From an uncultured Gammaproteobacteria bacterium (GTDB lineage Bacteria; Pseudomonadota; Gammaproteobacteria; UBA9214), in the NCBI GenBank assembly GCA_963773065.1, contig CAVYZN010000014.1, positions 1 to 64,000 of the forward strand: a stretch of 64,000 nucleotides of DNA, written 5' to 3'. A program made the position numbers and the translations under genes. Shown here one piece after another: positions 13,430 to 45,161 of the stretch (positions are counted from its first letter, which is position 1; every line of letters begins with the position of its first letter). Below the pieces are notes generated by a model that saw only the letters and a list, made by a program, of their open reading frames with translations, was not told the origin of the DNA and made no database searches.

Positions 13430-14789
13430 TTACGCCGCGATGGTTTGATTGCGTCCCCGATGCTTGGCCTCGTAGAGAGCCCGGTCCGCCCGGGCGACGA
13501 GTTCATCGAGCCCCTCGCTGCTGCTCATCTCCGCGCAACCGATCGACACCGTTACGTGCAGACCGGTGGCCAACTCATCGAACTGTTCAACCTCGATACG
13601 ATGCCGAATCTTCTCCGCTATCAGCAGCGCCCCATTCAAGTCAGTGGCCGGCAACAACACGACGAATTCCTCACCGCCCCAGCGCGCCACGGTATCGCCG
13701 CTACGAAGACAGCCACGCGTAAGACGAATGATCCGCTTCAGCACCCGGTCACCGGTCTCGTGCCCGTAAGTGTCGTTGATGCGCTTGAAATGATCTACGT
13801 CGACAAAAACTAAAGACACATTGCTCTTGAATTCTGCGGTGCTGACCGATTTCCTGGCGGGCGTGATTGGCGAAGCTGGCACGATTCATCGCCCCGGTCA
13901 GCCCGTCGCGCCTGGCCCGCGTCTCGGCGCGCCGCCGCAGGACATCGCTTCGGCGTTCCAGGTTGCCGAAGGACAGCGCCAGGAAGGCTACGACAAGCCC
14001 CACGATCTGGCTGCTGGCGACGATCAGGATCAAGAACGAGATCTCGGCGGCATCCGGACTGATATCGATAATGCTGAGGCCCAGCAGGTACGGCGCCATC
14101 ATGACCAGCGCGAGGTGACGCCGCGCGAGCGCGCTGATGCGGGTTGGGCCGAGCAGCGCCCGCAGGAAGCCGTGATAGACGGTGCACAAAGCCGTGGCCA
14201 CACACAGTGGGATCAGCATCAGGACGGTGGCCAGCGACATCTTGGCATGGGGCACCTGCACCCCGAGTACGAACCCGACCAGCGCCAATGCCGGCACGCC
14301 GTACGCGAGTACGGACAACATCTGCGAGATTACCGCGTTACGGTACTGGCGCAACAGCAGTGAGGCAGCCAGCATCAGCAGACAGAGCGCGGTGCTCGTC
14401 GACACGACGGCCTCCGGCCCCGCAGGAAACGGATTGAGTTCCTGGAGCCAGCGGCTGGCTTCATCGGGGTAGGCCAACTGAGCCAGCGCGCCGAGCAGTA
14501 CCACGGCGCAAACTCCATCGACGACCAGACGGGCGCGCTGCATCGTGAGCACGACACAAACCGCCAGCAGTATCACGCTCAGCACGGCAACCGGGTGTAG
14601 CGCCGGACCGTCGGCCAGCGGCTGAATGATGTCGACAAGGCCCAACCGATACGCAACGAGAGCGAGTACCGCGATCAGGAAGCTGCACAGGGCGAACAGG
14701 GAGGCCAGGCCCAGCGCAGTCCTGACCGGCCGCTTCACCTGCGCCGTCGAGACCGCGCCTGCGCGAGTATGACATCGTTCCAAAAACAC
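13430..14789 (-). CDS. Membrane-anchored diguanylate cyclase (frameshift near 13840)
   Basis: Multiple TM helices, then RDGLTGAMNR, DVDHFKRINDTYGH, RWGGEEF, ADRALYEAK. Confidence 0.88.
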
Positions 14790-15231
14790 GTTTCATCTCC
14801 CAAGGCGACTAAGGGATGAAGCCCTTGTTCAGATGCCTTGGAAAAAGCCTAGGCAGACTCTCGCCGGTAGACATTGAAGACCATCACCAAATCGACAAAG
14901 GACGATATCGACGGTCGTTGTTTCGTCGCGGATCGTTAGCCGTGTACAAAACCGGCCGGCTACGTCGAGCCTGAACCGCTTCCCGGTTGCGTGCTCGATG
15001 CATCAATTTGAGACCCGCATCAACGTTCGCCCGAGCATGTCCAGCGGGCAAGCCCATCCCGCACGGCATGGCATGACTTGTGATGGTCTTAGTCATACGG
15101 CGGCCCCAGGATGTGGCCACGCCGGCCGCTCCGGTACCGTTTTCGGTAACTTGTGGACAGACCAACCCGATGGCCGGTAGCGTAACCACGGCGCTATACT
15201 GGTAACCGATGACCTTCAATCCACGGGAGAG

Positions 15232-15441: not shown

Positions 15442-15582
15442 GGTTGCCTCCGCCAGATAAGCGATCCGACCTGTCGTGTGATCACCGGTATCCGCGGCGG
15501 CGCTTAGCCTGGAGGCCGCAGGGGTATGTCATTAAAAATGCCCCAACAGGCGGAGGCGCTCTATGGGATCCTATGTTGGCGG

Positions 15583-16137
15583 TCATCGCGGGCTTTCTCC
15601 TGACGGCCGTACGCCCAACAGGCGGAGGCGCTGCACGGGATCCAATGTTGGTAGCTCAATCTCATCGGACGGTGCGGGAGAAGGTTCGGACTCGGGCGTT
15701 GAGGTAACCTCAGTTGCGAGGGGTTTGGCTGATTCTTCCGCAGGTTCGGGCATCTTGATGAAGGACCCTTTATACAAACTGATTATCATCGTCTGGCCCG
15801 GTTCTATGATAATTGCGGTTTCAGACGTCGCAACCCGCAACTGATGGATGCCGGGTTTCACCCCATGAAGTGCTGTCGGCGTTTTTCCAAGACTGACGCC
15901 GTCCAGCGAGGCCAGCAGCGCCGGAGGCTCGCTGAAGACCGCCAGTTTGCCTTCAGATTTACCCGAACCATCCAGGGTTCGGGTAGGTTCAATCAAATCG
16001 GCCGCCAAAACGACGTCACCAGCCGGCAGCAGTGAGGCGGCGGAAACGGCTATAAATAGCATCGCAATGATCTTTATCATCCTAACTCCCGGAGCCAGAT
16101 TACGCGGTCTCTGAATGGTCAAATTAAAAAGATTCAC
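15583..16137 (-). CDS. Secreted PEGA-domain protein
   Basis: Signal peptide; LAVFSEPP...LDGVSLGKTP...VKPGIHQLRV. Confidence 0.7.
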   Translation of the reverse strand: MNLFNLTIQRPRNLAPGVRMIKIIAMLFIAVSAASLLPAGDVVLAADLIEPTRTLDGSGKSEGKLAVFSEPPALLASLDGVSLGKTPTALHGVKPGIHQLRVATSETAIIIEPGQTMIISLYKGSFIKMPEPAEESAKPLATEVTSTPESEPSPAPSDEIELPTLDPVQRLRLLGVRPSGESPR

Positions 16138-28053: not shown

Positions 28054-28907
28054 TGGTGGTAAAGGCAAGCGGTCAATCGTAGGTGCTACTGCTGGAACTT
28101 ACCAGCAGCAGGATACCCAAGATGAGGCGACCCGTGCATGGAACTTCTTTGTTGCCCTGATTTATAAAGCCGGGATTTCCCCTTGGCGGCTCGTTCGGGA
28201 GAGCAAGAACTACGAGTCGTGCTTTGTCGGTGTATGTTTCTACCGGATCTTGGATTCGTCCAAGGTCATGACGAGTATGGCGCAGATATTTAATGAGCGA
28301 GGCGAGGGGATGATTATTCGTGGTGGTCCGGTTGATCTGACCAAGGATGATCCACAACCCCATTTGAGTGAGCTTGATGCCTGGACGCTGCTAAGTCACG
28401 CCTTGAAGAGATATCGAGAAGAGCATCGGCACCTACCCGCCAGGGTCGTACTGCATAAGACCTCAACTTTCAACAAGGCGGAAATGGCAGGATTCTCCGC
28501 AGCGGTTGAGGAACAATCGATTGAATTCTTCGACTTTCTCGCTCTTGCAAAGTCGGGGATGAGGTTGTTTCGACACGGCAAGTATCCTCCGCTTCGCGGG
28601 ACATGCCTGCATCTCGATGACTCGAACCACCTGCTCTACACGCGCGGTAGCAGCGAATTCTATGAAACCTATACCGGGATGTACGTTCCGAGGGCATTGC
28701 ACCTTCAGCTTGCAGCCCGTGAAACAGCTCCCGAGAAGTTGGCGTTAGAAATTTTGGCGCTTACCAAGCTTAATTGGAACAGCACACAAATTGACGGGAG
28801 TTTCCCGATAACGCTTCGGGCTGCCAAGCGAGTTGGAGACGTCCTGAAATACGTGCCCGATGAAGAGGAGCCGAGGGCACAATACAGCTTTTACATGTGA
28901 AAGGTTG

Positions 28908-29198: not shown

Positions 29199-30702
29199 CC
29201 CAACTTAGCGGATTCGGCGTGTCGGTCGCGCCAACTCATTGATCCCTATGAACGGACCCTCGAAAGTCTGCACTACAAGCGGACGGCTGTCTCGGCCTGA
29301 GCAGTGGTGATCCGAGGCGGTGGTTGGGCCGGCAGTTCGATGTGTAAGCGATCGAGCAGCAGCTTCAGATCACGCTCGGGCTCGGTGTAGCGCGTCAGCA
29401 CGACTTCGCGTCCATCGGTCGTGGGGATGCGCACATCGATCATCTACGGCGGCAAACTTCTCGAGCACGCTGCGCGCGCTCAGTCCGCGCGCGTGCGGGC
29501 GTAGCTGCTGCGTCAATGTCGCGTGCAGGCAGTAGGCCAGGAAGGCGATAAAGACGTGCGCCTCGATGCGGCTCTCCTGCTGATGGAAGATCGGGCGGAT
29601 GGCGAGCTCCCCCTTGAGATTCTTGAACGCCTCTTCGACCTGCACGAGCTGGATGTAGTAACGCCACAGTTCGGCAGGGTCGCTCCCGGTGAGATTGGTG
29701 CGCAGCAGATAGCGACCTTCGCGACGGCGCCGTGCGCGCAGCTTCTCGCGGCGCAGCGCGTAGGTGAAGACGCCCCCGTGTTCGTGAACCTGCACCTCAA
29801 CCAGGCGCCACGCTGAGGGCGACTGGCTGCGTGCCGCGCCCAGTTTCATCAGCAGCGCCTCGCGGCTGAGCTTCATCGTCGAGAGCTGCTTCAGTCGCGC
29901 CCACAAGCGCTTGAGCTGGCGGGTGCGCATCGCGCGCTCTTTCGCGATCCGGTCATGGCTTTGGGCGAAGACGTACATCTCACCCTCCTGTGCGAGGAGC
30001 TTCACTTGCACGCCGGGCCGCGCCTCGTGCCAGGGTTTGAAAAGCAGATCCTTCTCCAGGCGCGAGAGTCGCCCCTTCGGCGTGCCGACCAAGTAGTACA
30101 CGGGCGGATCGCTGCCGCGCATCTCCTGCAACACCTCCTCGGTCGGAATGCCGCGATCCATCACCCACACGCGACGCGCCTTGCCGTACTGACGCTCGAT
30201 GTGCGCAAGAAAACCGCGCAGCGTCGTAGTGTCGGCCGTGTTGCCGGGCAGCACCTCATAGGCGAGCGGCAACCCCTCGGGGGTGACAACCAGGGCGATG
30301 ACGATCTGCACGCAGTCGCTGCGCCGATCGCGTGAGTAGCCGTACTGGCGCTTGTCGCCCTCTGCAAACGGCGGATTCGCCTCGAAGTAGGTGCTGGTGT
30401 AAGTGCCGACCAAAACCCGCGGCTATTTGCCGCGACTGTATTCGAGGCGCACCCCTGCACTTGAGGTCTGCGTTGACGACTCGGTGTGCAAGAACGAGGT
30501 TTGACGGGGCGCGGAGTCACCCGAATCAGGTGACAGAGAATCTGAAAGTTGGTAAGACAGGCTGGCCGAGGAGATAGGCGTAACGCCAGCCATGATTTGA
30601 CGGTCAACCCTGGCGCTACGCCCCCAACCGTGCTTTCGCACAGCCACCGTAGTGTCGCACCTGGCGTGGTCATTATCCAGCGCTCATCGGCCGGTTGTGC
30701 CG

Positions 30703-31128
30703 ATGAAACCCAGTGCCCGTCTGTACCATTGTGCCGGCTGCCATTGCCAGGTCTTTGTCTGTCGACAGTGCGACCGGGGGAACCTCTACTGCGCCCGCGG
30801 TTGCGCTGAACGGGCCCGAACGGCGTCGCTGCGACGCGCCGGATCCCGTTACTGTTCGACGCGCCGGGGTCGCCTGGCCAACGCCGCCCGTCAGGGCCGG
30901 TTCCGTGCGCGTCAAAGACAAAAAGTAACGCATCAGGGTTCCCTTCCGATAGTGGCGCTTGTTCTACTCCTCTGCGCATTGAACAACCCGGAAAGTCCTC
31001 AGGAAGACGCGCGCAGCGGCGCCCCTACCGCGATTTATTGCCATGTCTGTGGTTGTGAATGCGAGCCCTGGTTGAGACGGGAGTTTCTTCGACCCACCGA
31101 ACGCGCTCGACAACCGCGAGCACCGTGA
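30703..31128 (+). CDS. Cys-rich (zinc-finger-like) accessory protein of the IS21 element
   Basis: CAGC..VCRQCDRGNLYC..GC...CHVCG. Confidence 0.65.
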   Translation: MKPSARLYHCAGCHCQVFVCRQCDRGNLYCARGCAERARTASLRRAGSRYCSTRRGRLANAARQGRFRARQRQKVTHQGSLPIVALVLLLCALNNPESPQEDARSGAPTAIYCHVCGCECEPWLRREFLRPTERARQPRAP

Positions 31129-31155
31129 CCGAAGCGCGACAACAGGAGACAGCCA

Positions 31156-32738
31156 TTGACGATCGACAAGGAACAGGAAGCGAAGATTCTGCGCTATCAC
31201 TTCGTGGAGCGCTGGGGGGTGAACACCATTGCCGCGCAACTGGGTATTCATCACTCCAGCGTCGATCGGGTGCTCTCGCAGGCGGGCTTGCCCAAAGCCG
31301 AGCGCACCCGCCAAGCCTCGATCGTCGATCCCTACCACCCGATGATCATCGAGACGCTCGCGCAGTTTCCCCGGCTCACCGCCGCACGCCTGTATGCCAT
31401 GGCGCAGGCGCGCGGCTACGCCGGTGGGGCGAGCCAGTTCAGGGCGCATGTGGCGCAGCTGCGCCCGCGCAAGCCCAGTGAGGCGTATCTGCGACTGCGA
31501 ACCCTGCCGGGCGAGCACGACTGCATGGATGCAGGAGGTAGAGCAACGCAGGAGCAGTTGCCGAGGCACAGATCGACTGGGGGCACTTCGGGCAGGTACA
31601 GATCGGCCGGGCGCAGCGCCCGTTGATGGCCTTCGTGATGGTGTTGAGCTGGAGCCGGCAGATCTTCCTGCGCTTTTATCTCAACCAACGCATGGACAAC
31701 TTCCTGCGCGGGCACGTCGCGGCGTTCAGCGCCTGCGGGGGTGTGGCGCGGGTGCTGCTCTACGATAACTTGCGCTCCGCCGTGCTCGAGCGCCAGGGCG
31801 AGGCGATCCGTTTTCACCCCACGCTGCTGGCGCTGTCGGCACACTATCGCTTCGAGCCGCGGCCGGTGGCGCCCGCGCGAGGCAATGAAAAAGGCCGTGT
31901 CGAGCGGGCGATCCGCTACATCCGCGACAGCTTCTTTGCCGGTCGTCAATGGTCGGATGTCGAGGACTTGAATGCGCAGGCCGCGGCCTGGTACTCGGGC
32001 CTCAGTGCCAACCGCCCGTGTCCGGAAGACCCCGCTATCACCGTCAGGGACGCCTTCGAGCAGGAGCGCGCGCAGCTCATTGCCTTACCGGACAATCCCT
32101 ATCCCACCGAGGAACGCCTCGAAGTGAGTGTCGGCAAGACACCGTATATCCGCTTTGATCTTAATGACTACTCGGTGCCGCACACCCAGGTGCGGCGCAC
32201 CGTGACGGTCCTGGCCTCGCCGACCCAGGTGCGGGTGCTTGACGCCGGCGCGGTGATTGCCGAGCACCGGCGCGTCTATGGCAAGGGCGAGCAGATCGAG
32301 GATCCGGGCCATATCGAGGCGTTGATCGATGCCAAGCGCGGCGCACGCCAGCACCGCGGTCAGGACCGCCTGGCGCACGCGGCGCCGTCGAGCCGCCAGT
32401 TGCTGCGCGAGGCGGCCGAGCGGGGCAACCGCCTGAGCCAGGTCGTCTCGCAGCTGACCCGGCTGCTCGACGAATACGGTGCAAGCGCGCTCGAGCACGC
32501 CATCGCCGAGGCGCTCGCCAACGGGGTTCCGCACCCCAATGCGGTGCGCCAGGCGCTGGAGCGAGCGCGTGAGCAGCGCCACCTGCCGCCACCGCTGGCC
32601 ATCGTGCTGCCGGACAACGCCAAGGCGAGAAACATCGTGGTGCGTCCCGCCTCCCTGGCGGCCTACGATCAACTCGACACCGACGACGCCGCCGAGATGG
32701 CAGAGCAACAGGAGCGCACCGATGACGAGAACCGCTGA
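31156..32738 (+). pseudogene. istA: IS21 transposase IstA, frameshifted by a 47-bp insert
   Basis: LPGE[insert]QAQIDWG, LYDNLRSAV, NEKGRVERAIRYIR. Confidence 0.88.
31518..31564. mobile_element. 47-bp miniature insertion
   Basis: Deleting CGACTGCATGGATGCAGGAGGTAGAGCAACGCAGGAGCAGTTGCCGA restores GAG CAG GCA CAG ATC GAC TGG (EQAQIDW). Confidence 0.8.
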
Positions 32739-33531
32739 TGCAGGGATCCCTCAGGAAGCGCTCAAGCAGCGGGCGCTCGCGCTCAAGCTCCATGAGCTGG
32801 TTGCGCACTGGGAGGAGCTGAGCGACCCGCAGATCGACTGGGTGAGGGCGTTGCTCCAGTGGGAGGACAGCGAGCGCAAGCGCCGCGGTCTGGAACGACG
32901 GCTGAGCGCGGCGCACATCGGCCGCTTCAAACCCCTCGCTGACTTCGACTGGGACTGGCCCGCGCAGTGCGACAAGGCGGCCGTCTCAGAGCTGATGCGC
33001 CTCAACTTCATCAAGGACGCCACCAACGTCATTCTGGTCGGGCCCAACGGCGTCGGCAAATCCACCATCGCACAGAACATCGTGCATCACGCCGTCCTGC
33101 AGGGACACAGCGCCTTGTTCGTCAACTCCGCCCAGATGCTCGGGGACCTGGCGGCACAGGAGGGTGACAACGCCTTGCGCCGACGCCTGAAACACTACGC
33201 GCATCCACAGGTGCTGGTGATCGATGAAGTCGGTTACCTCTCCTACGGCAGTCGCCATGCGGATCTGCTGTTCAACATCGTTAATCAACGCTATGAGCTC
33301 AAGCCAACGATTGTGACCACAAACCGACCCTTTGGCGAGTGGAACGAGGTGTTCCCCAACGCAGCCTGCGTGATCTCAATCGTCGATCGCCTGGTGCATC
33401 ACTCCGAGATCATCGTCCTCGAGGGCGAGTCCTATCGCTTCCGAGAGGCGAAGGAGCGCGCCAGCAGGAAGAAGAAATCCACGAAATCCACGCGTAGCGC
33501 CACTCCAAGAACGCCCGCAGGAGACCGCTGA
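32722..33531 (+). CDS. istB: IS21 helper ATPase IstB
   Basis: GPNGVGKS Walker A, LVIDEVGY Walker B, DRLVHHS. Confidence 0.93.
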   Translation: MTRTADAGIPQEALKQRALALKLHELVAHWEELSDPQIDWVRALLQWEDSERKRRGLERRLSAAHIGRFKPLADFDWDWPAQCDKAAVSELMRLNFIKDATNVILVGPNGVGKSTIAQNIVHHAVLQGHSALFVNSAQMLGDLAAQEGDNALRRRLKHYAHPQVLVIDEVGYLSYGSRHADLLFNIVNQRYELKPTIVTTNRPFGEWNEVFPNAACVISIVDRLVHHSEIIVLEGESYRFREAKERASRKKKSTKSTRSATPRTPAGDR

Positions 33532-33533
33532 CC

Positions 33534-33737
33534 ATGTCGATGAAAGTCACACGCTTATACACCTACTGGGACGCCCCGGAAGCCCATGCCGTCATCGAGT
33601 TCCTGGAGGTGCTTCGAGATCAGCTCTGGGAGATCTATGGCGATCAGATCATTGATCTGCTTCGCGAGGAAACCGTTACCCAGGGCGCAAACGAGCAGCA
33701 GGCCGAGCTTCAGTTCGATGACGACCCTGAGTTCTAG
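33534..33737 (+). CDS. Small acidic accessory protein of the IS21 element
   Basis: 67-aa ORF right after istB, inside the right end. Confidence 0.6.
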   Translation: MSMKVTRLYTYWDAPEAHAVIEFLEVLRDQLWEIYGDQIIDLLREETVTQGANEQQAELQFDDDPEF

Positions 33738-34709
33738 ACGGCACTGATACGGGCGCCACCGATAGCGTCCATAAGCTGTTATGCCTGGATACGGCAAACA
33801 GTCGCGGCAAATAGCCGCGCTTTTACTCCGGCAACAACAGCTGGTGAGATCGTAAAGCAGTACATCGAAGCTGACGTTGAACAGATCACGCCAGCGGCTC
33901 GCCAGATGATCAAACACCGCCGTCTTGTGCGCGAGCAAGCGGTCGTGACACGCATAGAGCGTGTGGATGTCGGCAAGCCGCTCGTCGGCTCCGAGCAAAT
34001 CAGCGAGCGCGCTGCGCTCGAACCACTCCCGGTGCAGTCGCCACTCGCTGCCCGGGGCGAGCAGCCGATAGGCGACCAGCACGAACAGCACCTGATCCCA
34101 GCGCGTCCCCTTGCGGCTCTTGCTCAACCGCACCCCCCAGAACGCATCGAGCTCCAGCTGCTGCCAAAGCCGCCACGCCAACCACACCGCGCCCCACTGC
34201 CGCGGCCGGCACAATCGCAGTTGCGACAGGCACAGCCGCACCACCGCGGCATCCTCGCTCAGCCCCTCACAGCGATCCTCGGGAAGCAGTGCGAGCGTGC
34301 GCGCTGTGCCCTCACGCTCGTCCAACACCTCGATCGAACGGCGCCACGCACGCTCCTGGGAATCGGTGATCTCGCCCAGGTACAGCACGTGCCGTTGCAG
34401 CACGCGCCCATCGGCAAGGCGTCGATTCTCAACCACGCTCCAGTAACGGTGCGTCTTGCCATCCTTCTTGCGGGTCGTCGCACGCAGAAACATGGCACCC
34501 CATTATCCACACCGTTTTGCCGCGGGGAACAAGCAAGGTCTGCACTACAGCGGTTTTCGGGCGATTCCGCTCGAGAGCCTACATACCGATCAATCACTTG
34601 TGCGAAGCGGTCCGCGAAAAATCACGAAAATCAAGGGCGAATCCGCCAAGTTGGGCTAATGTCTCAGCCGTCCTGTTCCGTCGTTTCGCGGACCCACTTT
34701 CTGTCTCTA

Positions 34710-35045: not shown

Positions 35046-35702
35046 GGGTTTTCCCTATTCTGCCTGTGATTCTTCTATCTCTACCCGGAAGGTGGGAGTA
35101 GTCTGACTCGGCTTATTGGATTTGACCAGCTTCCTGCGATACGACCCCATGGCATGGACTACGGAACTTCCGAATCCGGCCATAACTTGCCGTTCCCGGA
35201 CGGCTAGCGAACGGCAACTTTGCCCGCAACTACGGACATTCATGTCGCTCAGGTTGTGCGGTTGTCCGTGATAGCAGGACGGGGACACGTTTCAGGCACC
35301 GCCATCCAAGCCCATGGGAATTCCAATCTCGCAGTCTCAGTTTGGCGAATAGCTACTGGACCTAAACGAAGCGAAACTCGGCCCTATCATGAGGTGTAAA
35401 AAAACGCCCCTCGGAGTGCAGAGGGGCGATAAGGCCTGATGAGGGTCAACGGCACCTTCCGTGGCACTGAAGTACTGAAAGTGTAGTCGAGCGAAACAGG
35501 TCTGTCTTGTAAAAACGCCGAGGTACACGACATCAGGAAGACAAGGACACCCGGGAAAAAGGCACAAAAAGCGGGACACTTCAGGAACAACCACCTGCTA
35601 AAATTAAATTGCGGAGGTTTCTATCCGCTGATGATTGCAGTGCACTTGGTTACCAAGTTTGCTGTCCACATTGCATATAAAACAGTTGATGAGGTAGTAG
35701 AT

Positions 35703-36113
35703 ATGACTAAGCTGAACAAAACATTGTGTGTCGCTGCCATTGCCGGCGCCCTAGCGGTTCCTTTTACGGCAGCCCAAGCCTGGGGTCCCTGGGGTGGTGG
35801 TGGTCCCTGGAGTAATGGCTGGGGTAATGACAGCTCGGGTGAGGGCTGGGGTGATGGCTCCGGTGACATGGACTTCAGTATGAGCGGTAGCGGCCATGGC
35901 AGTGGTTATGGGCGTGGTCGTGGTTATGGCTCTGGCTATGGTTATGGCTATGGCGGCTATCCGGGTTATGGCTATGGTGGCTATCCCGGTTATGGTGGCT
36001 GGGGTGGTCCTGGCTATGGCGGTGGCTATCCAGGTGCCTATGGTGCGCCGTATGGTTATGCTCCCCCGGCGGTCGCACCCGTACAACCAGCCGCACCGGC
36101 CAGTAGCAAATAA
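35703..36113 (+). CDS. Sulfur globule envelope protein (SgpA/SgpB-like)
   Basis: Signal peptide ending AAQA, then WGPW, GDMDFSMSG and GYGGYP/YGAPYGY repeats; RBS GAGG. Confidence 0.8.
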   Translation: MTKLNKTLCVAAIAGALAVPFTAAQAWGPWGGGGPWSNGWGNDSSGEGWGDGSGDMDFSMSGSGHGSGYGRGRGYGSGYGYGYGGYPGYGYGGYPGYGGWGGPGYGGGYPGAYGAPYGYAPPAVAPVQPAAPASSK

Positions 36114-36170: not shown

Positions 36171-36203
36171 GGCTATAATGGAACAATGGTCGCCTATAGC
36201 TAC

Positions 36204-37832
36204 CTAAGCCGGCATAGCCGGAACCAAACAGGAAGAGGTATTGTACGCACGGGCTAAGCGGTGGTGGCGACGATGACACAGGCGTTGGTGGAACGGTACG
36301 CAGATCGGTTGCATGGGGTGCTCTCCTGTTACGACCGCATCGTGATGACGGGCACGTTGCCGGGGGCCTGCTATGCGCAGGGCATGACGGCGTTTTTGTA
36401 CGCGAGGGGCATTCGGATTTTCGACTATCCCCGGTTTGCCGAGCCCTTGCGCGAGGCGCTCCGCGAGCGCGCGCAGGAGCTGGCGCAGTCGGCGGGGATC
36501 GAGATCGAGCATATCGCCAAAGCCCACATCCGCAAGGAAGATGTGGTCGCCAAGGTGCTTGAGCGGCGCGGCGATCATCCGGGTCTGGTGCACATCATTT
36601 CGGCGATGGAAGCCTGTCAAAGCTACAAGCCCTGGCATGACAAGGCGAGCGGCAAGACCTACCTCAAGCCCGATACGGGCAAATGCCTGCACTACTATTT
36701 TTACTTCATCGACCCGCTCGTCGGCCTGTGTTACCTGCGGGTGCCGACTTGGTGCCCGTTCAAATTGCAGTTCTATTGCAACGGCCATGGTTGGCTGGCG
36801 CAGAAGCTTAAAACCCGGCGCATCGGCTTTACCCAGGTGGACAATGCCTTTGTGCGCCTGGATGACTTCGCGCGCGCGCAACAGTTGGCCGATGGCTTCA
36901 AGCCCGAGCAACTGCACCGCATCCTGGATCGTTACGCGCGCCAGTGCTGCCCGGTGCACAAGAGCTTCGGGCAAGGCTATCACTGGAGCCTGCTGCAGGT
37001 GGAGTACGCTACCGATCTGGTGTTCCGCTCCCAAGAGATGCTGGCGCCCCTGTATGAACAGCTCTCCCGCCAGGCGGTGCTGGGGGTGAAGGCCGAACAG
37101 ATTGCCACCTTTCTCGGCAAGAAGATCACCCCGCCGCTGGCGCAGGAGATCGGCAACCGCTTTGCCACCCGCATCGAAGGGACCTGCATCAAACATCGCC
37201 TGGGCAAGGTTCAGGTGAAGATGTACGACAAATACGCCCGTGTGCTGCGCATCGAAACCACCGTCAACGACGTCTCCTTCTTCAAGCACCACCGCAAGGT
37301 GGAACATCGAGATAGACCCAGCACGCGGCAACTGGCGCCGCTGAAGAAATCCATCTACAGCCTGATCGATCTGCGCCAGATCCTCCTGGGATGCAATCGC
37401 CGCTACCTGGAGTATCTGTCCGCGCTGGACGATCACAGCGCCGGACAGCGCGCGCTCTCGCGCCTGACCGACGAGCGGTGCGAGAGCGACCGGCCGATCA
37501 AGGGCCTGAACTTCTTCAAGCGCACCGAGCAGCAACTGCTGCGGGCACTGCAACGTCCGCAGTTCAATATCCACGGTCTGCGGCGCGCCGATCTGATGGC
37601 TTTGCTGCCCCACGCCTCGGCGGCTGCGCTCTCGCGAGAGCTGAAACGGCTGCTTGCCCTCGGCGTGATCAAACGGGTCACCGGAACTTATCGTTACTAC
37701 CTCACGCGCTTGGGGCGCGCCGCCATCGCCGCCGCCTGCTCGCTCACGGAATTCAGTATCGTTCCCGCTTTGGCCACTGCAAAGTAACAAACTCTTCGCC
37801 ATTTCTGTCAACAGTAAAGTCATAAGAGACTA
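36204..37832 (+). mobile_element. Insertion element without terminal inverted repeats, copy 2
   Basis: Duplicate of 26425-28053; CTA at 36204-36206 and 37830-37832. Confidence 0.9.
36261..37787 (+). CDS. Putative transposase, 508 aa (copy 2)
   Basis: Same protein as copy 1 except LDDH versus LDNH. Confidence 0.75.
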   Translation: MVATMTQALVERYADRLHGVLSCYDRIVMTGTLPGACYAQGMTAFLYARGIRIFDYPRFAEPLREALRERAQELAQSAGIEIEHIAKAHIRKEDVVAKVLERRGDHPGLVHIISAMEACQSYKPWHDKASGKTYLKPDTGKCLHYYFYFIDPLVGLCYLRVPTWCPFKLQFYCNGHGWLAQKLKTRRIGFTQVDNAFVRLDDFARAQQLADGFKPEQLHRILDRYARQCCPVHKSFGQGYHWSLLQVEYATDLVFRSQEMLAPLYEQLSRQAVLGVKAEQIATFLGKKITPPLAQEIGNRFATRIEGTCIKHRLGKVQVKMYDKYARVLRIETTVNDVSFFKHHRKVEHRDRPSTRQLAPLKKSIYSLIDLRQILLGCNRRYLEYLSALDDHSAGQRALSRLTDERCESDRPIKGLNFFKRTEQQLLRALQRPQFNIHGLRRADLMALLPHASAAALSRELKRLLALGVIKRVTGTYRYYLTRLGRAAIAAACSLTEFSIVPALATAK

Positions 37833-38025
37833 AATTTGAATGTCCACAGCGCATTCGAGACCTCCCCAAGAACATAGGGCATGTCGCATTAGGGTCGACT
37901 CCCGCCCATTAGCCGATCCGAATACAAGCACTGACTAAACTTCCGGAGTCGGCCATTCCTGGTCGTACAGGCCACAAATGCTAATGTCCCGATTTAGGGA
38001 TTCTCGAAGAAGTCATCATATTTTA

Positions 38026-38152
38026 CAGGAGGTACGTTTGAAGCTTGGGAAGCTACAGTTCTACCATTGAACTACACCCGCTTAATTCTTTGTGCACAAG
38101 AGTTTACCGAACTGCCAGGGTGAATGTCACCACCCCAGGGTAGAGGAATGGT
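38026..38152 (-). repeat. 127-bp inverted repeat, left copy
   Basis: Reverse complement of 42917-43043 with one mismatch. Confidence 0.95.
38042..38081 (-). pseudogene. 5' half of tRNA-Gly(CCC), not a complete tRNA
   Basis: GCGGGTGTAGTTCAATGGTAGAACTGTAGCTTCCCAAGCT: acceptor 5' strand, D-arm and CCC anticodon loop; no T-arm follows. Confidence 0.85.
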
Positions 38153-38316
38153 ATCAGGGGGTAGAAACGGGCAAAGGTCATCATCAGCAAATCGATTGCC
38201 CGGTCGTCTGAGGGCATGCCATGTAGTCGTTTAGACGTTCACCCCTTCTCTGATGGAAAACGTACGAACGTCTCTACTTTTAGAGAACCGATATCGCCAC
38301 TTTAAACATCAAACGG

Positions 38317-38340
38317 AAACGGCGACCGAAGCCGCCGTTT
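38317..38340 (-). terminator. Intrinsic terminator after the cohesin-like gene
   Basis: AAACGGCG-ACCGAAGC-CGCCGTTT hairpin about 20 bp past the stop. Confidence 0.7.
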
Positions 38341-38362
38341 CTGTTAAATCAAATCTTAATCG

Positions 38363-38944
38363 TCACGCTGCTCTTTTGCGTCTTGATATCCCGAGCAAAC
38401 TCAGCAGGCCGGAACTAAACAACCAAACTGCAGCAGGAATGGGTATAGCACTTATATTCACCGTACCTTCAAGCAGCGTTGGGGTAATCTGTGCTGTGGC
38501 GCTGAAAAATTGCGAACTCCCCAGGATCGTGAGGCTTGGGCTACCTGCAGACGCTGCGGTCAGAGTCATCGTGGCAATAGTAAAAGTCCCGGTGGCCGGA
38601 TCATTGACAAAGGTGTCGAAGCCGATACCCGGCCAGGTATTACCAACGGCCGGCCCACCCCCATCAGGCAGAAAGTCGAAAAGGGCGCTATTAACAGCCA
38701 CCGATACGACTGTGAGCAATGTACTGTCAAACCCAAGATCAATCACACCGCCGGCCAGTTCCGTGAAATTGCTGCCGACAATGTCCACGGTAAACGTGTC
38801 GCCCATTGTGACCGCTTTGAGATCCGGATTGAAACCCACCGTGGTGGCCAATGCCACTCCGTTGCAGCTGAGTAACAATGCAGCCGCACCCAGTGCGCGT
38901 AGCAGTCTGGCGGTCGTTGTTTCAAGTACTCGTATTATGTTCAT
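38363..38944 (-). CDS. Cohesin-like domain protein with VPLPA/PEP-CTERM-type sorting signal
   Basis: Signal peptide; VTMGDTFTVDIV..LAGGVIDLGFDSTLLTVVSV...GTFTIATMTLTAASAGSPSLTI; C-terminal IPIPAAVWLFSSGLLSLLGISRRKR. Confidence 0.75.
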   Translation of the reverse strand: MNIIRVLETTTARLLRALGAAALLLSCNGVALATTVGFNPDLKAVTMGDTFTVDIVGSNFTELAGGVIDLGFDSTLLTVVSVAVNSALFDFLPDGGGPAVGNTWPGIGFDTFVNDPATGTFTIATMTLTAASAGSPSLTILGSSQFFSATAQITPTLLEGTVNISAIPIPAAVWLFSSGLLSLLGISRRKRAA

Positions 38945-39079
38945 TTTGTTCTCCGTAATCAGGTATTGGTTATGTATTGGTTATGTGTTATTGCTGAATT
39001 GCATGCGGTCATCAATCATGACTGTCCCGCTTCGTTGCAGCCCTTCCGGAAGGGTAAACCATTTTCTTCTTGAGCCGCG

Positions 39080-42000
39080 CTAGAACGACCCGCAGCACGA
39101 TGGTCCCGGTGGTTGGCGGTACAGCCCCTTGAGAATATTCAGATCCAGCGTGTTGATCACCCGTCCCCGTTAAAGTCCGAATTGGCAGTGTAGTTGGCAT
39201 CACCCACGGCTGAACGGTATGCAAGCTTGAGCAGGTTCAGATCCAGCGTGTTGGTCGCGCCATCATTATTTAAATCGCCATCGCAAATATTGCCATAGCC
39301 ATCGCCATCCGTGTCACGTTGATCGGGGTTTGGAACGTTGATGCAGTTGTCGGAGGCGTCTGGCACACCGTCACCATCGGCATCAGGAAGTGGAGTTGTC
39401 ACCGGTGTCATCACAATTTTGGCTCTTTTGAATTCCGAGTGGGTTAACGCGCCACATGTGGGTTGAGTTTGGAGAAGTCGAGTTTGCCGGCGATCAGGAA
39501 AATCACAGTACGGATCGTGCTGAACCGACCGTAGCCGCGCGCTTTGCGCTTGGCGGACTGGAACAGCCCGTTCAGTGCCTCCAGGAAACCATTGGTCTGA
39601 CGGGTCTGCGCCCAGGCAATGATGCTCTCGAAATGGTTGCGGATCAGTTTGGCAACTTCCTTCATGGGTTCGACTTTGGAGCGCATGACATTGGTACACC
39701 ACTGCCAGAGCATGGCGGCGACCACGTTGATCTGTTTGCGATCGAGGATCTCGCCGCAACTGCTCACGGTACACCCACGCTCGGGCGGTCCGCTTCGTGG
39801 TGAGTTTGGCGAGCAGGTTGTCGACTTCCGCGCGGGCGGTGTCGCTGAGAGTTCCGTAATTGCGCAGCAGCTTCCAGCGCAACCCCTTGAGGCCGGGCGT
39901 GGTTTTCTGCTCGATGCGCCGGGTCTCGTCCAGGGCCCTGGAGGCGTGGGCGATCACATGGAACTTGTCGAAGGTGATCCGGGCATTGGGAAGACTCTCG
40001 GCGCAGCCCTTGATGAAGGCCGGCGACATGTCGATGCTGACCGAGTCGATGGCATCAATGTCGGCACCATGGGCCCGGATATCCTCGGCCAGCCGCCGGA
40101 TCGCCTCGGCCTCACGGCCTTCGGTGACGAACAGCACCGCGCGGCGCTCGGCGTCGGCGGCCAGGGTGACATAGTCGTGGCCGCGGGCTCGCGAGGTCTC
40201 GTCGATGGCCAGGCGGGTGACCTCGGAGAAGTTGGCCTCGGCCAGCGCGAGATCGACATAGCGCCCGCAAATCGCCGCCACCCGATGCCAGCTCTCGCCG
40301 GTGAGACGTGCCACCGCCGCAAACGGCATCTCGCGCGCCAACATCAGCACAAGTGCCTCAAAGAGCAGCGTGAAGCCCGAGAGCTTCCCGGTCCAGCCCG
40401 GCTCGACCTGGCGCACCGCGCCACCAGGCAGCTTCACGCGGGGTACGCGGACCTCCAGGTAGCACTCGTGCTGGAAGAAATTGAGGTGCCGATAACGCTT
40501 GCTGACCGTATCGTGCACCGGATGGACGCCAGTCTCACCAGCCACAGCGAACCGGCTACCAGCAGTGAAGTCGATGCCTACGGTCAGAGTCTTTGCCGTC
40601 GCGTCCAAGTCAACGGATGTCACATGCCACGGCTCGGCAATGCCCAGGGCTGTTTCAAAAAGCCTGTCGTTCATCCTGATCCTATCGATTATCAGTAGGT
40701 GCGCCTAGAATACGGCTAGCCATCAGATTTCAAAAAGAGGCACAATTTTACCGGTGGTTGAGGAGGCGACAAAACTGAGCCCAGTAACAAACGCAGTCGG
40801 ATTACTGGGATCCAGCATCGCGTCCTCTTCAATGCCTCTCAGGCTAAAGCGACTGACACCATTGGGTACTCCCAGATCATCCACGAAACTGAATAATTGC
40901 CCCCCGGAAATCTTGATACCGGAATCGACATAAATACCTTGAGCATCGTCAAATAGATACAAATCATAAATGCCATCGCCAATACCTGGCGGCGGTTCGA
41001 CTGCGGCGAAATTCGGCGCTCCATCCTCCGCAGAAAAGTCGTAACCCGTCGCGCTAGCAGGGTCGAACCAAACCAGTACGGGCACCGAGTTTCCTCCCGG
41101 TCCGGGCACCGCAATTCCTGCTCTGCGGCAAGGCGACCACTTATTTGAGCATGGGAAATAAAAATTGGGATTGCTCGTTGTCGGCGGGTCCGGTAGAAGT
41201 GGGTTTTCCGGTGTGCTCCCCGGTGCATCCGCACGAATAATCGCCCCAACGGCACCGCCTCCTGTGGTTTGGTAATCCGCATAAAATGCGATTTGGCCCG
41301 CGTCATTGATTGCGTGTGACGAGAGGTTAACTCTTGCAATCGTTTCACTGCTTGTACTGCCATCCGGCAACGTGACGGGTATGGTATCTCCAACCTTAAC
41401 CACACTATTGGCCGCGGGATCGGGACCCGTAAAAATCCCATCTGGAAACACAGGACTGTTCGTAACGGCCGCCTCAAAAGCTACGACGCCGAGGTTGTTG
41501 ATCGAACTTTTCCATATGTGGGTATAGCCGGATCCGGAGGGAACCCGCGTGTCAGTTGCCGTGCCGTCACTTACTTGAAGGACATAGTCATCCAAGAGTC
41601 CTGAACCAAAGCCGTAAGCCACCTGCCCCAGATCATTAATACTGGGCGTTTCTACCCCCACGGCAAGAAGCGATTGGCTAACAGGTATCGTGGTGTTATT
41701 CACAACCTTATAAACTCTCTTATCATCTGCTCCACTACCCGTCGAGGTGGTGAGGCCAACCGTCGCGAGATCGCCGTTGCCATTAGTCGAGAACTCTGAT
41801 GCCACCACCTGGGTAAGTGTCCCCAGCGGTGTAACATCTCCCGGTCCCATTAACCGGCTGATAGCGGTACCGTCATATTTATATACCGCCTCTGCGCCCG
41901 TCGTTAAGATACCCCTGAAATAGACAGCGTTTGACTCATCGATATCGACCGCAGCACCGAGTACAGCAAACTCGGGGTTTGAAGTGGTGCTCAGCAGGCT

Positions 42001-42378
42001 ACTCGGTTCCAATTGTAAGCCGCCCTTGATCAGTTCCGAGCCAAGACCGAATAAAGGGCCAGTTTGGTTAGAAACAACGGAATTGCCGGATGCATTGAGA
42101 TTGAGGTCTTGGGTTGCGACGTTGAGATTCAGCATCAGAGACCGGTTTGTGAAGCCATCGCCGACCCCTACTACTGTCCAGGTACCTTCGACATAGTCAA
42201 CCCACCCGCTGTTGTTGATTGCCGGATTAGCCCGCATCAGGCCAGGACCGGACACGATTTGCCTGTACTTATACGTATTGTCCGCCGCGGTCGATGCTCC
42301 ATTTGGGCCCAGCAAAAGTGATGCGAAAAGAATCTGCCCCACCGCACATCTGGCGCGCCAACGTAGTATTATCATCAT
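39080..42378 (-). pseudogene. Secreted NxxGxxAF-repeat protein with C-terminal TSP3 repeat and dockerin-like domain, split by ISL3
   Basis: INDLGQVAY, INNLGVVAF, INDAGQIAF repeats; removing the ISL3 joins TTGKIV to MTPVTTPLPDADGDGVPDASDNC...DLNNDGATNTLDLNLLK...DFNGDG(V)INTLDLNILK. Confidence 0.82.
39421..40741 (-). mobile_element. ISL3-family element (transposase 39444-40674, one frameshift)
   Basis: Ends GGCTCTTTTGAA / GCCTCTTTTTGAA; 8-bp target duplication ACAATTTT; AIDETS, IDMSPAF, FDKFHVI, TNGFLEALN. Confidence 0.93.
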
Positions 42379-42728
42379 GTTGTCCTCCCTAGGTGTTTTT
42401 TTGAAATCGCGCAATTGCTTTCATTTGCTTATTTCTTGTGCGCGATGTGTAAACAAGCACGTATGTTCCCATGACGTGAGACGAGGGACGAGGGACGGCC
42501 TTGCTAGCCCCAGGTCATGAACGTATTCTTTTGATTCGGTAACCCCTCCTGGCTCCAATTCTTGTTCTTAGCGTTACAAAGTTAACCGTTGGGATTTATA
42601 CAGCACCCGCCAGTCTGGTCTTCTTACTGAAGGAATTAGAGAGTGGGACGGGTTATTTCGCAATGATTAAGTACTGCGCAATAAAAAAGCAACAGAAATT
42701 TTGCTGACATGACGTAGCTGAAAACGAT

Positions 42729-42746
42729 ATACGTAGAAATACGTAT
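42729..42746. promoter_or_regulatory. Palindromic putative operator upstream of the dockerin-protein gene
   Basis: ATACGTA-GAAA-TACGTAT, perfect 7-4-7 inverted repeat in an AT-rich upstream region. Confidence 0.4.
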
Positions 42747-42916
42747 TAACCAGGAATGGTCGAAAAGGTCATAGCCTGTCATTGATCTTCATCACCCCCT
42801 ACTGTTCCTCCCACAATAACCGATATCTAACACCTGCGTAATCATCGTACCCACCCTCAGCCAGCTACAATCCAAAATATCGGGTGGCACAGTCGGCACC
42901 CCCATCACCGACCAAC

Positions 42917-43043
42917 ACCATTCCTCTACCCTGGGGTGGTGACATTCACCCTCGCAGTTCGGTAAACTCTTGTGCACAAAGAATTAAGCGGGTGTAGTTC
43001 AATGGTAGAACTGTAGCTTCCCAAGCTTCAAACGTACCTCCTG
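42917..43043 (+). repeat. 127-bp inverted repeat, right copy
   Basis: Contains GTGACA-18 bp-TAAACT putative promoter, the palindrome TTGTGCACAA and the tRNA-Gly 5' half. Confidence 0.95.
42988..43027 (+). pseudogene. 5' half of tRNA-Gly(CCC), not a complete tRNA
   Basis: Same 40 nt as the left copy; continues TCAAACGTACCTCCTG instead of a T-arm. Confidence 0.85.
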
Positions 43044-43225
43044 CATATCTCCAAACCGGACATTTACTTGCCGTAGCCAGGTGGCTGAGATGGGTCGCTT
43101 TAGGACGTTGCCTGTCAAATCAAGTCTGAAACAATATACCTTTGTCGCTCTGCCGCTGCACGGTGAGAAATGCCGGTGAGGCTCATCGGTCCATGGTGCG
43201 GAGGGCCCGACCCGCACCCGCCGGC

Positions 43226-43672
43226 TCATGGCAAGGCCAGGCGCTCGGCCAGGAATGCCAGCGCGGCCTCCAGGTTAAGCGCCGCCCGCTGGCTCAACTC
43301 CTCCCCCAACTCAAACTCGTATCCGCGGATCGCGAGGACGTAAGCCGGCGGCGCGGCCTGCCCGTAATGGCGCTCATAGGCCGCCAGTACGGCCGGGGGT
43401 GTGAGGGCATGGGAGGAATAACTCTGGTCCGCCAGCGCGGTGATGGGCGCGAATTGAAACGCTTCCTCGCCGGACACGCTGGCGTCGATGAACAGCACTT
43501 CCTCCCGCTCCGCCATATCCAGCAGGTATTCCACCTGCAACTGGAAGTCGGTGAGGAGTTCCACGTCCGGCAGCTTCAGGGCCTCCAGGCGTTCGATGGC
43601 CCGGGGACCCAGCGCATCGTCGCCGCGGCTGGGGTTGCCGATGCCGATGATCAGACGGCTTGCGCGGGTCAA
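43226..43672 (-). CDS. hoxW: Hydrogenase maturation protease
   Basis: IIGIGNPSRGDDALG, FIDAS, SSHALTP. Confidence 0.88.
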   Translation of the reverse strand: MTRASRLIIGIGNPSRGDDALGPRAIERLEALKLPDVELLTDFQLQVEYLLDMAEREEVLFIDASVSGEEAFQFAPITALADQSYSSHALTPPAVLAAYERHYGQAAPPAYVLAIRGYEFELGEELSQRAALNLEAALAFLAERLALP

Positions 43673-43694: not shown

Positions 43695-45161
43695 TCAGTT
43701 GTCCCGGCTGATGGTGTCGAGGCGGCCGCCGTCGGCGTCGAGCAATTCCACGATCAGCGGCATTTTCCCCAGCGCGTGGGTGGCGCAGGAGAGGCAGGGG
43801 TCGAAGGCGCGCACCGCCACCTCGATGTGGTTGAGCAGGCCCTCGTTGAGCTTGCGCCCGTCCAGGTGCTGCCGGGCGACCGCTCGGATGGCCTCGTTCA
43901 TCGCCTGGTTGTTGTGGGTGGTGGAGACGATGAGGTTGGCGCGCTCTACCAGGTCGTCTTCGTTGACCCGATAGTGATGGATGAGCGTGCCCCGGGGGGC
44001 CTCGATCATGCCCACGCCCCGCTCCTGGCGGGTGCCGCTCGTCACCAGGTCCTCACCCATGAGGTCATCGTCGTGGAGCAGTTCCTTGATCATCTCGGCG
44101 GCGTGCAGCATCTCGATCATGCGCGCCCAGTGATTGCCGAGGGTGGCGCCGCTGGCGCTGCCCGCATCGAAGGCGAGGAATTCCCGACGTTCCCGCTCGG
44201 CGAACGGCGTGTCGATGAAATCGCATTGCGTCACCCGGGTCAGGGGCCCCACCCGGTACCAGCCCTGCTCCGGCCCCAGGCTGCGGAAGAAGGGGAATTT
44301 CATGTACGACCAGGACTTCACTTCCTCGAAGATGTAGTCCCAGTAATGATCGTATTCCACGTGGTCGAACAGGGTGTGGCCATCCCGGTCCCGGGCGCGC
44401 AGGCCGCCGTGGTAGAGGTCCATGGCGCCGTCGGCGCGGATCAGGCTGAGGGTGTGGGCGCTAAAGCGGCCGAAGCTGGTGTAGAGCGCCAGGTTCTGCT
44501 CGAACAGGCGCCGCGCCAACTGCACCGCGTCCCGGCTCCAGGCGATGATCTGGTAGATGTCCGCGAGCAGGAAGTCGCGTTCTTCCCGGGACAGGTTCTT
44601 GTTTATCCCGCCGGGGATGGCGCTGGTGCCGTGAATCCGCTTGCCGGCGGTGACGCGGATCACCTCCTGGCCGAACTTGCGCAGCAGCACGCCCTGCCGG
44701 GCGATGTCGGGGTAGGCGGCGGCGACACCGACGAGATTGCGTCTGGCCACGTCGGAATCGAAGCCGAACAGCAGGTCCGGGGAGGACAGGTGGAAGAAAT
44801 GCAGGGCGTGGGATTGCAGGATTTGCCCGTAATGCATGAGCCGGCGCAGCTTTTCCGCCGTGGGCGTGAGCTGCGTCGCGCCGACGATCTGGTCCATGGC
44901 CTTGGATGCGGCCAGGTGGTGGGACACCGGGCAGATGCCGCACAGGCGCTGCACCATGACCGGAATCTCCCAGAACGGCCGGCCCTGGACGAATTTCTCG
45001 AAGCCGCGGAATTCGACGATATGCAGCCGGGCCTGCTGGACGCGGTCGTATTCATCCAGCAGCAGGGTGACTTTGCCATGGCCCTCGACCCGGGACAGGG
45101 GTTCGATGGCCACCCGGCGTAAATTTTCCGGATGGGCGGCGGTTTCCAGTTCAAGGCTCAT
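43695..45161 (-). CDS. hoxH: NAD-reducing [NiFe] hydrogenase large subunit (group 3d)
   Basis: [17 protein letters not shown] (L1), [10 protein letters not shown] (L2). Confidence 0.95.

Follow-up and report, generated by a model that had tools for sequence, protein, structure and literature searches.

Small cargo units that lack a recombinase of their own and are bounded by recombination sites are familiar from integron cassettes and from the dif-site elements that use XerCD. Among the islands of tRNA genes collected in Islander, those carrying a 5′ fragment of the target tRNA gene (tDNA) are rare, at 159 of 3919 versus 3760 with a 3′ fragment; its filters require an integrase inside the island and fragments in the same orientation, and inverted fragments are discarded as false (PMC4383910). 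The tycheposons and tRNA-flanked islands of Prochlorococcus are described as cargo elements beside tRNA genes, with scattered partial tRNAs as remnants of successive integrations (10.1101/2020.12.28.424599). In this study we analysed a stretch of 64,000 nucleotides (nt), hereafter the window, from an uncultured gammaproteobacterium of the lineage UBA9214 (assembly GCA_963773065.1, contig CAVYZN010000014.1, positions 1 to 64,000), in which a 5-kb segment is enclosed by two inverted copies of the promoter and 5′ part of a tRNA-Gly(CCC) gene, referred to as the arms. The locus exemplifies a so far undescribed type of tRNA-gene island scar, the layout of which recurs in related sulphur bacteria, and we tentatively favour the reading that the arms are displaced 5′ tRNA-Gly(CCC) fragments left by integrative cassettes without an integrase, that they have been homogenised, and that the cargo was trapped between them by inversion.

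As in the 5′-fragment islands of Islander, the junction in the window is marked by a promoter-proximal fragment of the target tRNA gene and would lie at the anticodon-loop sublocation, and a tandem array is present in a congener; unlike in those islands, the two fragments are mutually inverted, the locus holds neither an intact tRNA nor an integrase, and the cassettes are 1-7 kb long and integrase-less. The tycheposons resemble the present elements in their cargo beside tRNA genes and in the partial tRNAs, but carry their own tyrosine recombinase, and the accessible part of their description gives no account of inverted arms or of a retained promoter plus 5′ part (10.1101/2020.12.28.424599). 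The sites in the window differ from those of integron and dif-site elements in being derived from a tRNA gene; no attC-like site, dif-like site or integron integrase was found, no search aimed at them having been made. In the literature on inverted or truncated tRNA-gene fragments flanking islands, judged mostly from titles and listings, no description of the outward-facing inverted layout was found. Hereafter, G, C and L numbers denote genomes, contigs and loci, respectively, the contig of the window being C14.

Structure of the inverted repeat

The arms, at positions 38026-38152 (minus strand) and 42917-43043 (plus strand), form an inverted repeat of 127 nt per arm, complementary at 126 of 127 positions (99%) with the sole mismatch at position 42954, and are separated by a spacer of 4764 nt. 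Similarity by chance is excluded, because the BLAST E-values of the arms are 2.8e-61 and 9.0e-60, and this pair is the one strong inverted repeat in the window. The near-identical block of the right arm is composed of a −35 hexamer (42939-42944), a −10 hexamer (42963-42968), nt 1-48 of tRNA-Gly(CCC) (42988-43035) and the sequence ACCTCCTG (43036-43043), and that of the left arm carries the same elements at 38130-38125, 38106-38101, 38081-38034 and 38033-38026, respectively. The promoter GTGACA-18-TAAACT pointed out in the initial annotation is present in both arms (42939-42968 on the plus strand and 38130-38101 on the minus strand), and both hexamers are kept upstream of the intact tRNA-Gly(CCC) in four of four congeners, but the match to the consensus is only 9 of 12, and the region contains 6 promoter-like sites versus 3.4 ± 1.7 in shuffled sequences.

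The arm fragment corresponds to the 5′ end of a tRNA gene that the genome itself possesses: nt 1-40 of its tRNA part are 100% identical to those of the genome's only tRNA-Gly(CCC) (C17:8452-8525), and the 71-nt promoter region is about 87-90% identical to that of this real tRNA. No tRNA was called by ARAGORN anywhere in the 64-kb window. The layout is not that of a composite transposon, with no transposase-family open reading frame (ORF) in the arms and no direct repeat in the flanks. The structure as first noted, namely 127-bp inverted copies with one mismatch, both tRNA parts pointing outward and no clear target duplication around the cassette, is thus real and had been seen correctly, although some of its details were misdescribed.

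Chimeric tRNA part of the arms

One such detail is the 3′ end of the tRNA part, which had been placed at nt 40 and taken to be followed by 16 non-tRNA bases. These bases resolve into TCAAACGT, 8 nt that correspond to tRNA nt 41-48 (the end of the anticodon stem plus the variable loop), and ACCTCCTG, the only non-tRNA sequence within the 3′ part of the 127-nt block, so that the tRNA-derived stretch runs to nt 48. This assignment is based on a 21-mer spanning nt 41-48, found in 86 genome stretches and at least 119 metagenome stretches, which represents the GCTTCAAACGT allele; for 183 of 215 instances in other Gammaproteobacteria among the matches listed, it is followed by an ordinary T arm.

The tRNA of this genus carries ACTAACGT at the position of TCAAACGT, and the arms match at nt 41-48 the allele common in other Gammaproteobacteria, so that they are chimeric across the anticodon stem-loop. 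The native tRNA in all five genomes of the genus reads GTAGC-loop-GCTAC-TAACGT, whereas the arms read GTAGC-loop-GCTTC-AAACGT and thereby carry a T27/T41 mismatch in the anticodon stem. Because nt 27 is the genus-specific base and nt 41, like nt 43, is of the common allele, the allele switch is placed between nt 27 and 41. The anticodon stem-loop is the classic crossover region of tRNA-targeting integrases; the switch falls within it and a conserved foreign tail begins after nt 48, although the end of a conversion tract would look alike.

Conserved tails and age of the arms

Homology of the arms extends beyond the 127 nt, and both of them run into a conserved tail. A tail profile made from foreign copies only, with the window copies excluded, matched 43045-43106 with an E-value of 2.9e-12 and 38002-37930 with an E-value of 1.4e-5 (nhmmer). 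The right arm bears the short form of the tail (43044-43106, plus strand) with the conserved motif TCTCCAAACCGGACATTT, and was aligned with the copies at L114, L128, L179, L190 and L239, while the left arm bears the long form (37930-38025, minus strand), in which a 21-nt insertion precedes the conserved motif, as it does at L140, L202 and G003:C449. On the upstream side a further stretch is present in the left arm only (38197-38243, minus strand), which is collinear with the native upstream sequence of the intact tRNA-Gly(CCC) in the congeners G003 and G004 (local alignment scores of 34 and 30, reached by none of 300 shuffles) and has no counterpart in the right arm. The extension beyond 127 nt rests on the tail profile and on this comparison with G003 and G004, and not on the pairwise test of the two arms, in which homology outside the block was not significant (the upstream score was reached by 450 of 500 shuffles and the downstream score by 221 of 500).

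The junction AAACGT|ACCTCCTG followed by the tail was found in 8 instances at 7 loci of other organisms among the matches listed (L114, L128, L140, L179, L190 twice, L202 and L239), and a decayed copy of junction plus tail exists in the congener G003. Of the six single tail-bearing modules, four sit no more than 305 nt from the end of a contig, as is common for repeats. With Rfam, no family except tRNA was detected on the tail. A BLAST search of the tail in 400 genomes of the class gave 12 weak matches, of which only the six covering the motif region were inspected, the other six covering other short parts; three of those inspected carried the motif with at most 3 mismatches and were judged to be chance matches because they sit inside a conserved protein-coding stretch.

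Because the two arms bear different tail forms, each with relatives in other organisms, they are old paralogues whose central 127 nt were homogenised recently, rather than a fresh inverted duplication. A one-off duplication, the fallback considered in the initial annotation, is refuted by the other copies in the same genome, in congeners and in other organisms.

In an alternative that we regard as improbable, the arms would encode a 58-nt T-arm-less tRNA-like RNA or a small RNA resembling a 5′ tRNA half, transcribed from the retained tRNA promoter and with its own function. The T-arm-less tRNAs of nematode mitochondria are 50-60 nt long and consist of acceptor, D and anticodon arms with a short replacement loop instead of the variable loop and T arm, and, in a similar manner, the Rfam tRNA model aligns end to end with both window arms when the T arm is deleted (37.3 and 35.0 bits versus a gathering score of 29), as it does for L114, both arms of L190 and L140, with most of the score of the window arms coming from the genuine 5′ part. 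In addition, pairing with the 3′ CUCCUGC extends over 6 of 7 acceptor bases, neither promoter hexamer is disrupted, and the first 40 nt are better conserved than the promoter region. The predicted fold, however, is no more stable than that of shuffled sequences (z of −0.80, with 42 of 200 shuffles as good, and −0.12, with 95 of 200), as compared with −4.14 (0 of 200) for the real tRNA. Among 10 copies no compensatory change was detected in the acceptor helix (of 4 variants, 1 forms a wobble pair and 2 lose a pair, while L202 keeps only 2 of 7 pairs), the copies of L239, L202 and G003 carry stem-breaking changes, and the anticodon stem of the window arms has a U-U mismatch. ARAGORN rejects the arms as tRNA, and plain sequence conservation continues for at least 30 nt past the proposed 3′ end. 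With this stability, the lack of covariation and the negative result of ARAGORN, the arms do not group with T-arm-less tRNAs despite Rfam scores above gathering, and, unlike the mitochondrial examples, they reside on a bacterial chromosome. The tRNA halves suggested in the initial annotation are likewise at odds with arms that run through the variable loop instead of ending at the anticodon loop and with the shuffle-level stability of the 58-nt fold.

Arrangement on C17 and in congeners

At a distance of 7 kb from the intact tRNA-Gly(CCC) on C17 lies a partial copy of it (15536-15641) in inverted, outward-facing orientation, the arms being about 274 nt long with 90-96% identity, and the interior has, except for an ISL3 copy, a GC content of 41-49% versus 59-68% in the flanks. 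The intact C17 tRNA and its inverted partial copy are further copies of the repeat in this genome. Between the interiors of C14 and C17 no homology was detected, the arms and an 85-nt flank motif being the only shared sequence. The C17 partial copy has an orthologue in the congener G002 (C17:15521-15655 corresponds to G002:C34:39706-39842), the right flanks being 84-91% identical over 3.9 kb, and the interiors at these orthologous loci are unrelated, indicating cargo turnover. In G002:C34 the interior encodes gtrA, a GT2 glycosyltransferase and a DUF6056 protein between inverted arms that are 100% identical over 909 nt, which reflects either very recent homogenisation or an assembly effect. 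This 909-nt repeat (L039:10058-10966 and 13919-14827) takes in 181 nt from the start of the gtrA-like gene, so that a second truncated gtrA start lies in the reverse direction.

G002 also carries a direct array, in which the native promoter and 5′ part joined to a foreign arm at C34:35094 are followed, at 28784 and 11875, by units of element promoter, 5′ part and arm, and which ends on contig C76, where an element-type promoter precedes the intact tRNA. The junction region that is repeated measures 528 nt, and the cargo of the array includes Shedu, dCTP deaminase and a sulphur-globule protein. As far as sequence can tell, this arrangement is characteristic of islands by which a tRNA gene has its 5′ part replaced.

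The persistence of arms around a wholly replaced interior at the orthologous locus of two species also suits a recombinase-free explanation, a genuine though lesser possibility, in which an ancient inverted duplication of the tRNA-Gly(CCC) 5′ region would have provided two divergent, highly conserved homology arms, the interior being swapped by RecA double crossover for incoming DNA with the same arms at its ends, and the arms kept alike by conversion. The range of arm identity, from 73-96% at L190 and about 92% on C17 to 100% over 909 nt in G002, is a spread typical of episodic conversion, the 5′ tRNA part differs little or not at all among many Gammaproteobacteria, and no integrase lies nearby. 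This explanation gives no account, however, of why fragments end at sublocations classic for integrases (following CCCAAG, or within the T loop), each continued by a conserved foreign arm that distant taxa have in common, and it leaves the direct tandem array of G002 unexplained. The perfectly shared 37-48 nt with about 70 nt at 80-90% identity would, moreover, be short for efficient RecA exchange.

Related loci in other Gammaproteobacteria

We surveyed 196 loci of other organisms that carry a tRNA-Gly(CCC) core, of which 22 have two copies. Outward-facing inverted pairs occur at 4 loci (L098, L190, L226 and L232), a direct fragment followed by cargo and tRNA at 2 (L197 and L198), an adjacent direct pair at 1 (L231), two full genes at 1 (L150), and a tandem copy interrupted in the T loop at 14 (L049, L051, L053, L055, L083, L087, L129, L136, L163, L168, L176, L206, L207 and L241). 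Together with the window, C17 and G002:C34, all seven inverted pairs face outward, although not all are independent, L098 and L226 being near-identical and C17 and G002 orthologous. The layout of the window is exactly repeated at L190, where two tail-bearing arms of about 240 nt (73-96% identity) lie about 1.5 kb apart.

At L198 a fragment is followed by a gene for a 1168-amino acid (aa) TSP3/dockerin protein and the intact tRNA, and at L197 by a PEP-CTERM protein gene and the tRNA, both without an integrase. Surface-protein cargo outside the window thus comprises TSP3/dockerin proteins at L198 and L239, a VWA/TSP3 protein at L179 and PEP-CTERM proteins at L197, L098 and L226; this recurrence of surface-protein cargo is suggestive.

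The T-loop tandem class (14 of 196 loci) is a separate observation. The second copy, in the same direction as the intact tRNA and 180-235 nt upstream of it (for example, L049:4981-5215), follows the tRNA up to ..GGGTTCGA and then enters a 9-bp hairpin, the two sides of which co-vary between loci (CCAGTTTGC/GCAAACTGG, CCAATTTGC/GCAAATTGG and CCAATCTGC/GCAGATTGG). With an Rfam tRNA score of about 37 bits, these copies may be structured tRNA-like RNAs or a small element.

Cargo enclosed by the arms and its decay

The segment between the window arms, with a GC content of about 50% versus 62-66% in the flanks, carries two cargo genes, both on the minus strand. Cargo gene 1 is in two parts: the 5′ part (40745-42414) encodes choice-of-anchor NxxGxxAF repeats and DUF7453 (Pfam; NCBIfam TIGR05002, 50.6 bits), and the 3′ part (39157-39420) TSP3 repeats and the first dockerin repeat, while the second dockerin repeat VINTLDLNILKGLY lies in another frame owing to an apparent 1-nt frameshift near 39157-39165. 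Cargo gene 2 (38363-38944) encodes a protein of 193 aa with a signal peptide, a cohesin-like domain and a PEP-CTERM-like C-terminus (IPIPAAVWLF...RRKRAA), the anchor motif having been recognised by eye and the NCBIfam floc_PepA match being weak; a terminator-like hairpin of 11 pairs follows it (38316-38341, minus strand). Genes of the cohesin/dockerin type are thus enclosed, as in the initial annotation, but these labels come from sub-threshold Pfam matches (18.3 bits for Cohesin in cargo gene 2 versus a cut-off of 24.1, and 16.9 versus 22.9), whereas TSP_3 in cargo gene 1, at 31.7, is above its Pfam cut-off.

The dockerin gene is disrupted by a copy of an ISL3-family insertion sequence (39421-40744, minus strand), which is unrelated to the arms. 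Its membership is indicated by a DDE transposase (Pfam DDE_Tnp_ISL3, E 2.4e-36), terminal inverted repeats (GGCTCTTTT../..AAAAAGAGGC), an 8-bp target duplication ACAATTTT (39413-39420 and 40745-40752) and four further full or partial copies in the genome (C22 twice, C27 and C6). The earlier statement that no recombinase lies inside is, taken literally, wrong in view of this transposase. The cargo is decaying, by the ISL3 insertion and the frameshift, and there is no evidence of present activity at the locus.

Inverted arms around a surface-protein cassette might also mark an active invertible, phase-variable segment with its recombinase encoded elsewhere, and the perfect 909-nt arms of G002 would fit ongoing exchange. 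We consider this very improbable for the window: both promoters are part of the arms and remain directed outward whichever way the segment lies, so that a flip would alter no promoter-gene junction, one cargo gene is already broken, and no recombinase lies nearby. With an invertible switch the locus shares the inverted repeats.

That the locus is an assembly artefact, a foreign interior having been joined through a conserved tRNA-derived repeat, is the least credible of the explanations and highly improbable. The source genome is metagenome-assembled with 6.3% contamination, the interior is about 12 points lower in GC than the flanks, and a 127-nt repeat is as long as a common maximal k-mer. 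However, the arms differ at one base and enter different tails, so that the assembly paths through them are unique; the ISL3 copy in the interior, which has its own target duplication, shares about 99% identity with those on C22, C27 and C6 of this genome; the layout recurs in independent assemblies (C17, G002, L190, L098, L226 and L232); and a relative of the cargo with 78% identity exists in the congener G002 (C70). None of the public sequencing runs contained more than 0.22 of the words sampled, and coverage by four runs was confined to the ISL3 copy and short tRNA parts; a 292-nt contig from run X1 matches 42988-43250 with 1 difference and diverges upstream of 42988, but is too short to interpret.

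The window cargo was not found in G001, G003 or G004 (88-100% complete genomes), and a search for a homologous cassette in G002:C93 and C57 gave only short dispersed motifs. A 50-70-nt motif upstream of the dockerin gene (window 42581-42656) recurs with 82-94% identity in G002 C70, C57 and C93, and in G002:C70 it again precedes a dockerin/cohesin pair; it may be a shared regulatory leader.

Flanks and neighbouring repeats

On the right, genes for a hydrogenase maturation protease (43226-43672) and a NiFe hydrogenase large subunit (43695-45161), both on the minus strand, converge on the right arm, and from 43150 onward this flank is 94% identical to the congener G004. In G004, the closest relative (L043, G004:C76:4625-6084), a 1.24-kb insert containing small ORFs comes after the end of the hydrogenase operon and is bracketed by a diverged (73%) second copy of window 43098-43266; a related stretch of 85-118 nt is found at C17:5258-5376.

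On the left, 192 nt outside the arm, lies a 1.63-kb repeat of unassigned family (36202-37833, no strand assigned), present in 6 copies of 99.8-100% identity (C14 twice, C27, C20, C19 and C6). Its two long overlapping ORFs of 539 aa (minus strand) and 508 aa (plus strand) gave no Pfam or NCBIfam match, and the repeat is perhaps an insertion sequence from a family yet to be described. Farther to the left, a stretch of 3.3 kb (30399-33738) that is 100% identical to C11:231931-235270 contains an ORF with a Mu-transposase C-terminal domain (31623-32738) and is adjoined by a DDE_Tnp_1 transposase gene (29370-30413). The sulphur-globule-protein (SGP) gene at 35631-36113 belongs to a dispersed multicopy family in G000-G004 with 72-84% DNA identity, one member of which adjoins the tRNA fragment within a G002 cassette (C34:29812-30408), while another is just downstream of the tRNA at L197.

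Proposed origin of the arms

In the origin that we tentatively favour, each arm would consist of a native-type promoter, tRNA nt 1-48 and a mobile-cassette arm (ACCTCCTG plus the conserved tail). Through a recombinase supplied in trans, a cassette would recombine in the anticodon loop of the tRNA gene and bring its own promoter and 5′ part, whereby the original 5′ fragment is displaced. Cassettes of this lineage would lack an integrase and often carry a single gene for a surface or secreted protein. Arms of short-tailed and long-tailed subtypes would then have been homogenised over their central 127 nt by gene conversion or recombination, the 5′ side coming from the genus-specific tRNA allele. 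A recombinase or RecA could flip the enclosed 4.8 kb but could not excise it, and because inverted arms permit only flipping, low-GC cargo would be trapped, persist and decay. The sequences themselves demonstrate the anatomy of the arms, their family, the chimerism, the recurrent layout and the decayed state of the cargo, whereas the site-specific mechanism, the recombinase in trans and the trapping are inferred.

The att-like origin suggested in the initial annotation is in line with the dispersed family of promoter plus 5′ fragment, the direct array of G002 and the chimerism at the anticodon stem-loop, but the cognate integrase that it supposed was not found. None of the 9 matches to the tyrosine recombinase family PF00589 in the genome lies on C14 or C17, so that the intact tRNA-Gly(CCC), beside which an integrase might have been expected, has none, and none of the 25 in G002 lies on C34 or C76.

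These absences weigh against the proposed origin, as do the following points. No PF00589 recombinase was found up to 7 kb from the L114 module; the genome that contains L098 yields just 3 PF00589 matches, one of them broken and none assignable to a locus by contig number; and no integrase was identified beside the modules in the other genomes examined. Among viral contigs, the 15-mer of the junction gave 76 matches, none with an adjacent tRNA part or tail, and a degenerate pattern for the second arm type gave none. A strict attL would predict an element outside the pair ending in an intact tRNA, which ARAGORN did not detect in the 64-kb window, and the right tail is only about 100 nt away from the hydrogenase operon. 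The locus also departs from a displaced-fragment island in that the intact cognate tRNA is on another contig and the two fragments are mutually inverted, and the route by which inverted arms are created is left unexplained by the proposal. Homogenisation of their centre also means that the two arms do not count as independent evidence, and the allele switch at nt 27-41 could equally mark the end of an ordinary gene-conversion tract. The tally of surface-protein cargo (about 7 of about 10 loci) is small and uncontrolled, and includes the near-identical L098 and L226. The filters of Islander would reject the window locus because its fragments are inverted and no integrase is present (PMC4383910).

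A wider proposal, at present rather doubtful, is that sulphur-oxidising and related Gammaproteobacteria share a tRNA-Gly(CCC) cassette system, in which small integrase-less units would use the anticodon loop as their entry site with the help of a trans-acting recombinase (for example, a host Xer-like one), the displaced promoter would drive the cargo, and inverted arms would serve as a two-site landing pad for flip or exchange without loss. The units of such a system would carry their own tRNA promoter and 5′ part, often with one choice-of-anchor surface protein (TSP3-dockerin or PEP-CTERM).

For the window locus itself the conclusion is a limited one, namely that its arms are scars rather than tRNA genes and that the dockerin gene between them is no longer intact. 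If the layout, seen at seven loci in several genera, is a regular outcome, then a class of small accessory tRNA-gene cassettes that replace the 5′ part, lack an integrase and end in outward-facing inverted arms would have been systematically missed by fragment-based island mapping. The proposed origin, if true, would offer a concrete route for turnover of the repertoire of surface proteins (dockerin, cohesin and PEP-CTERM) in uncultured sulphur oxidisers.

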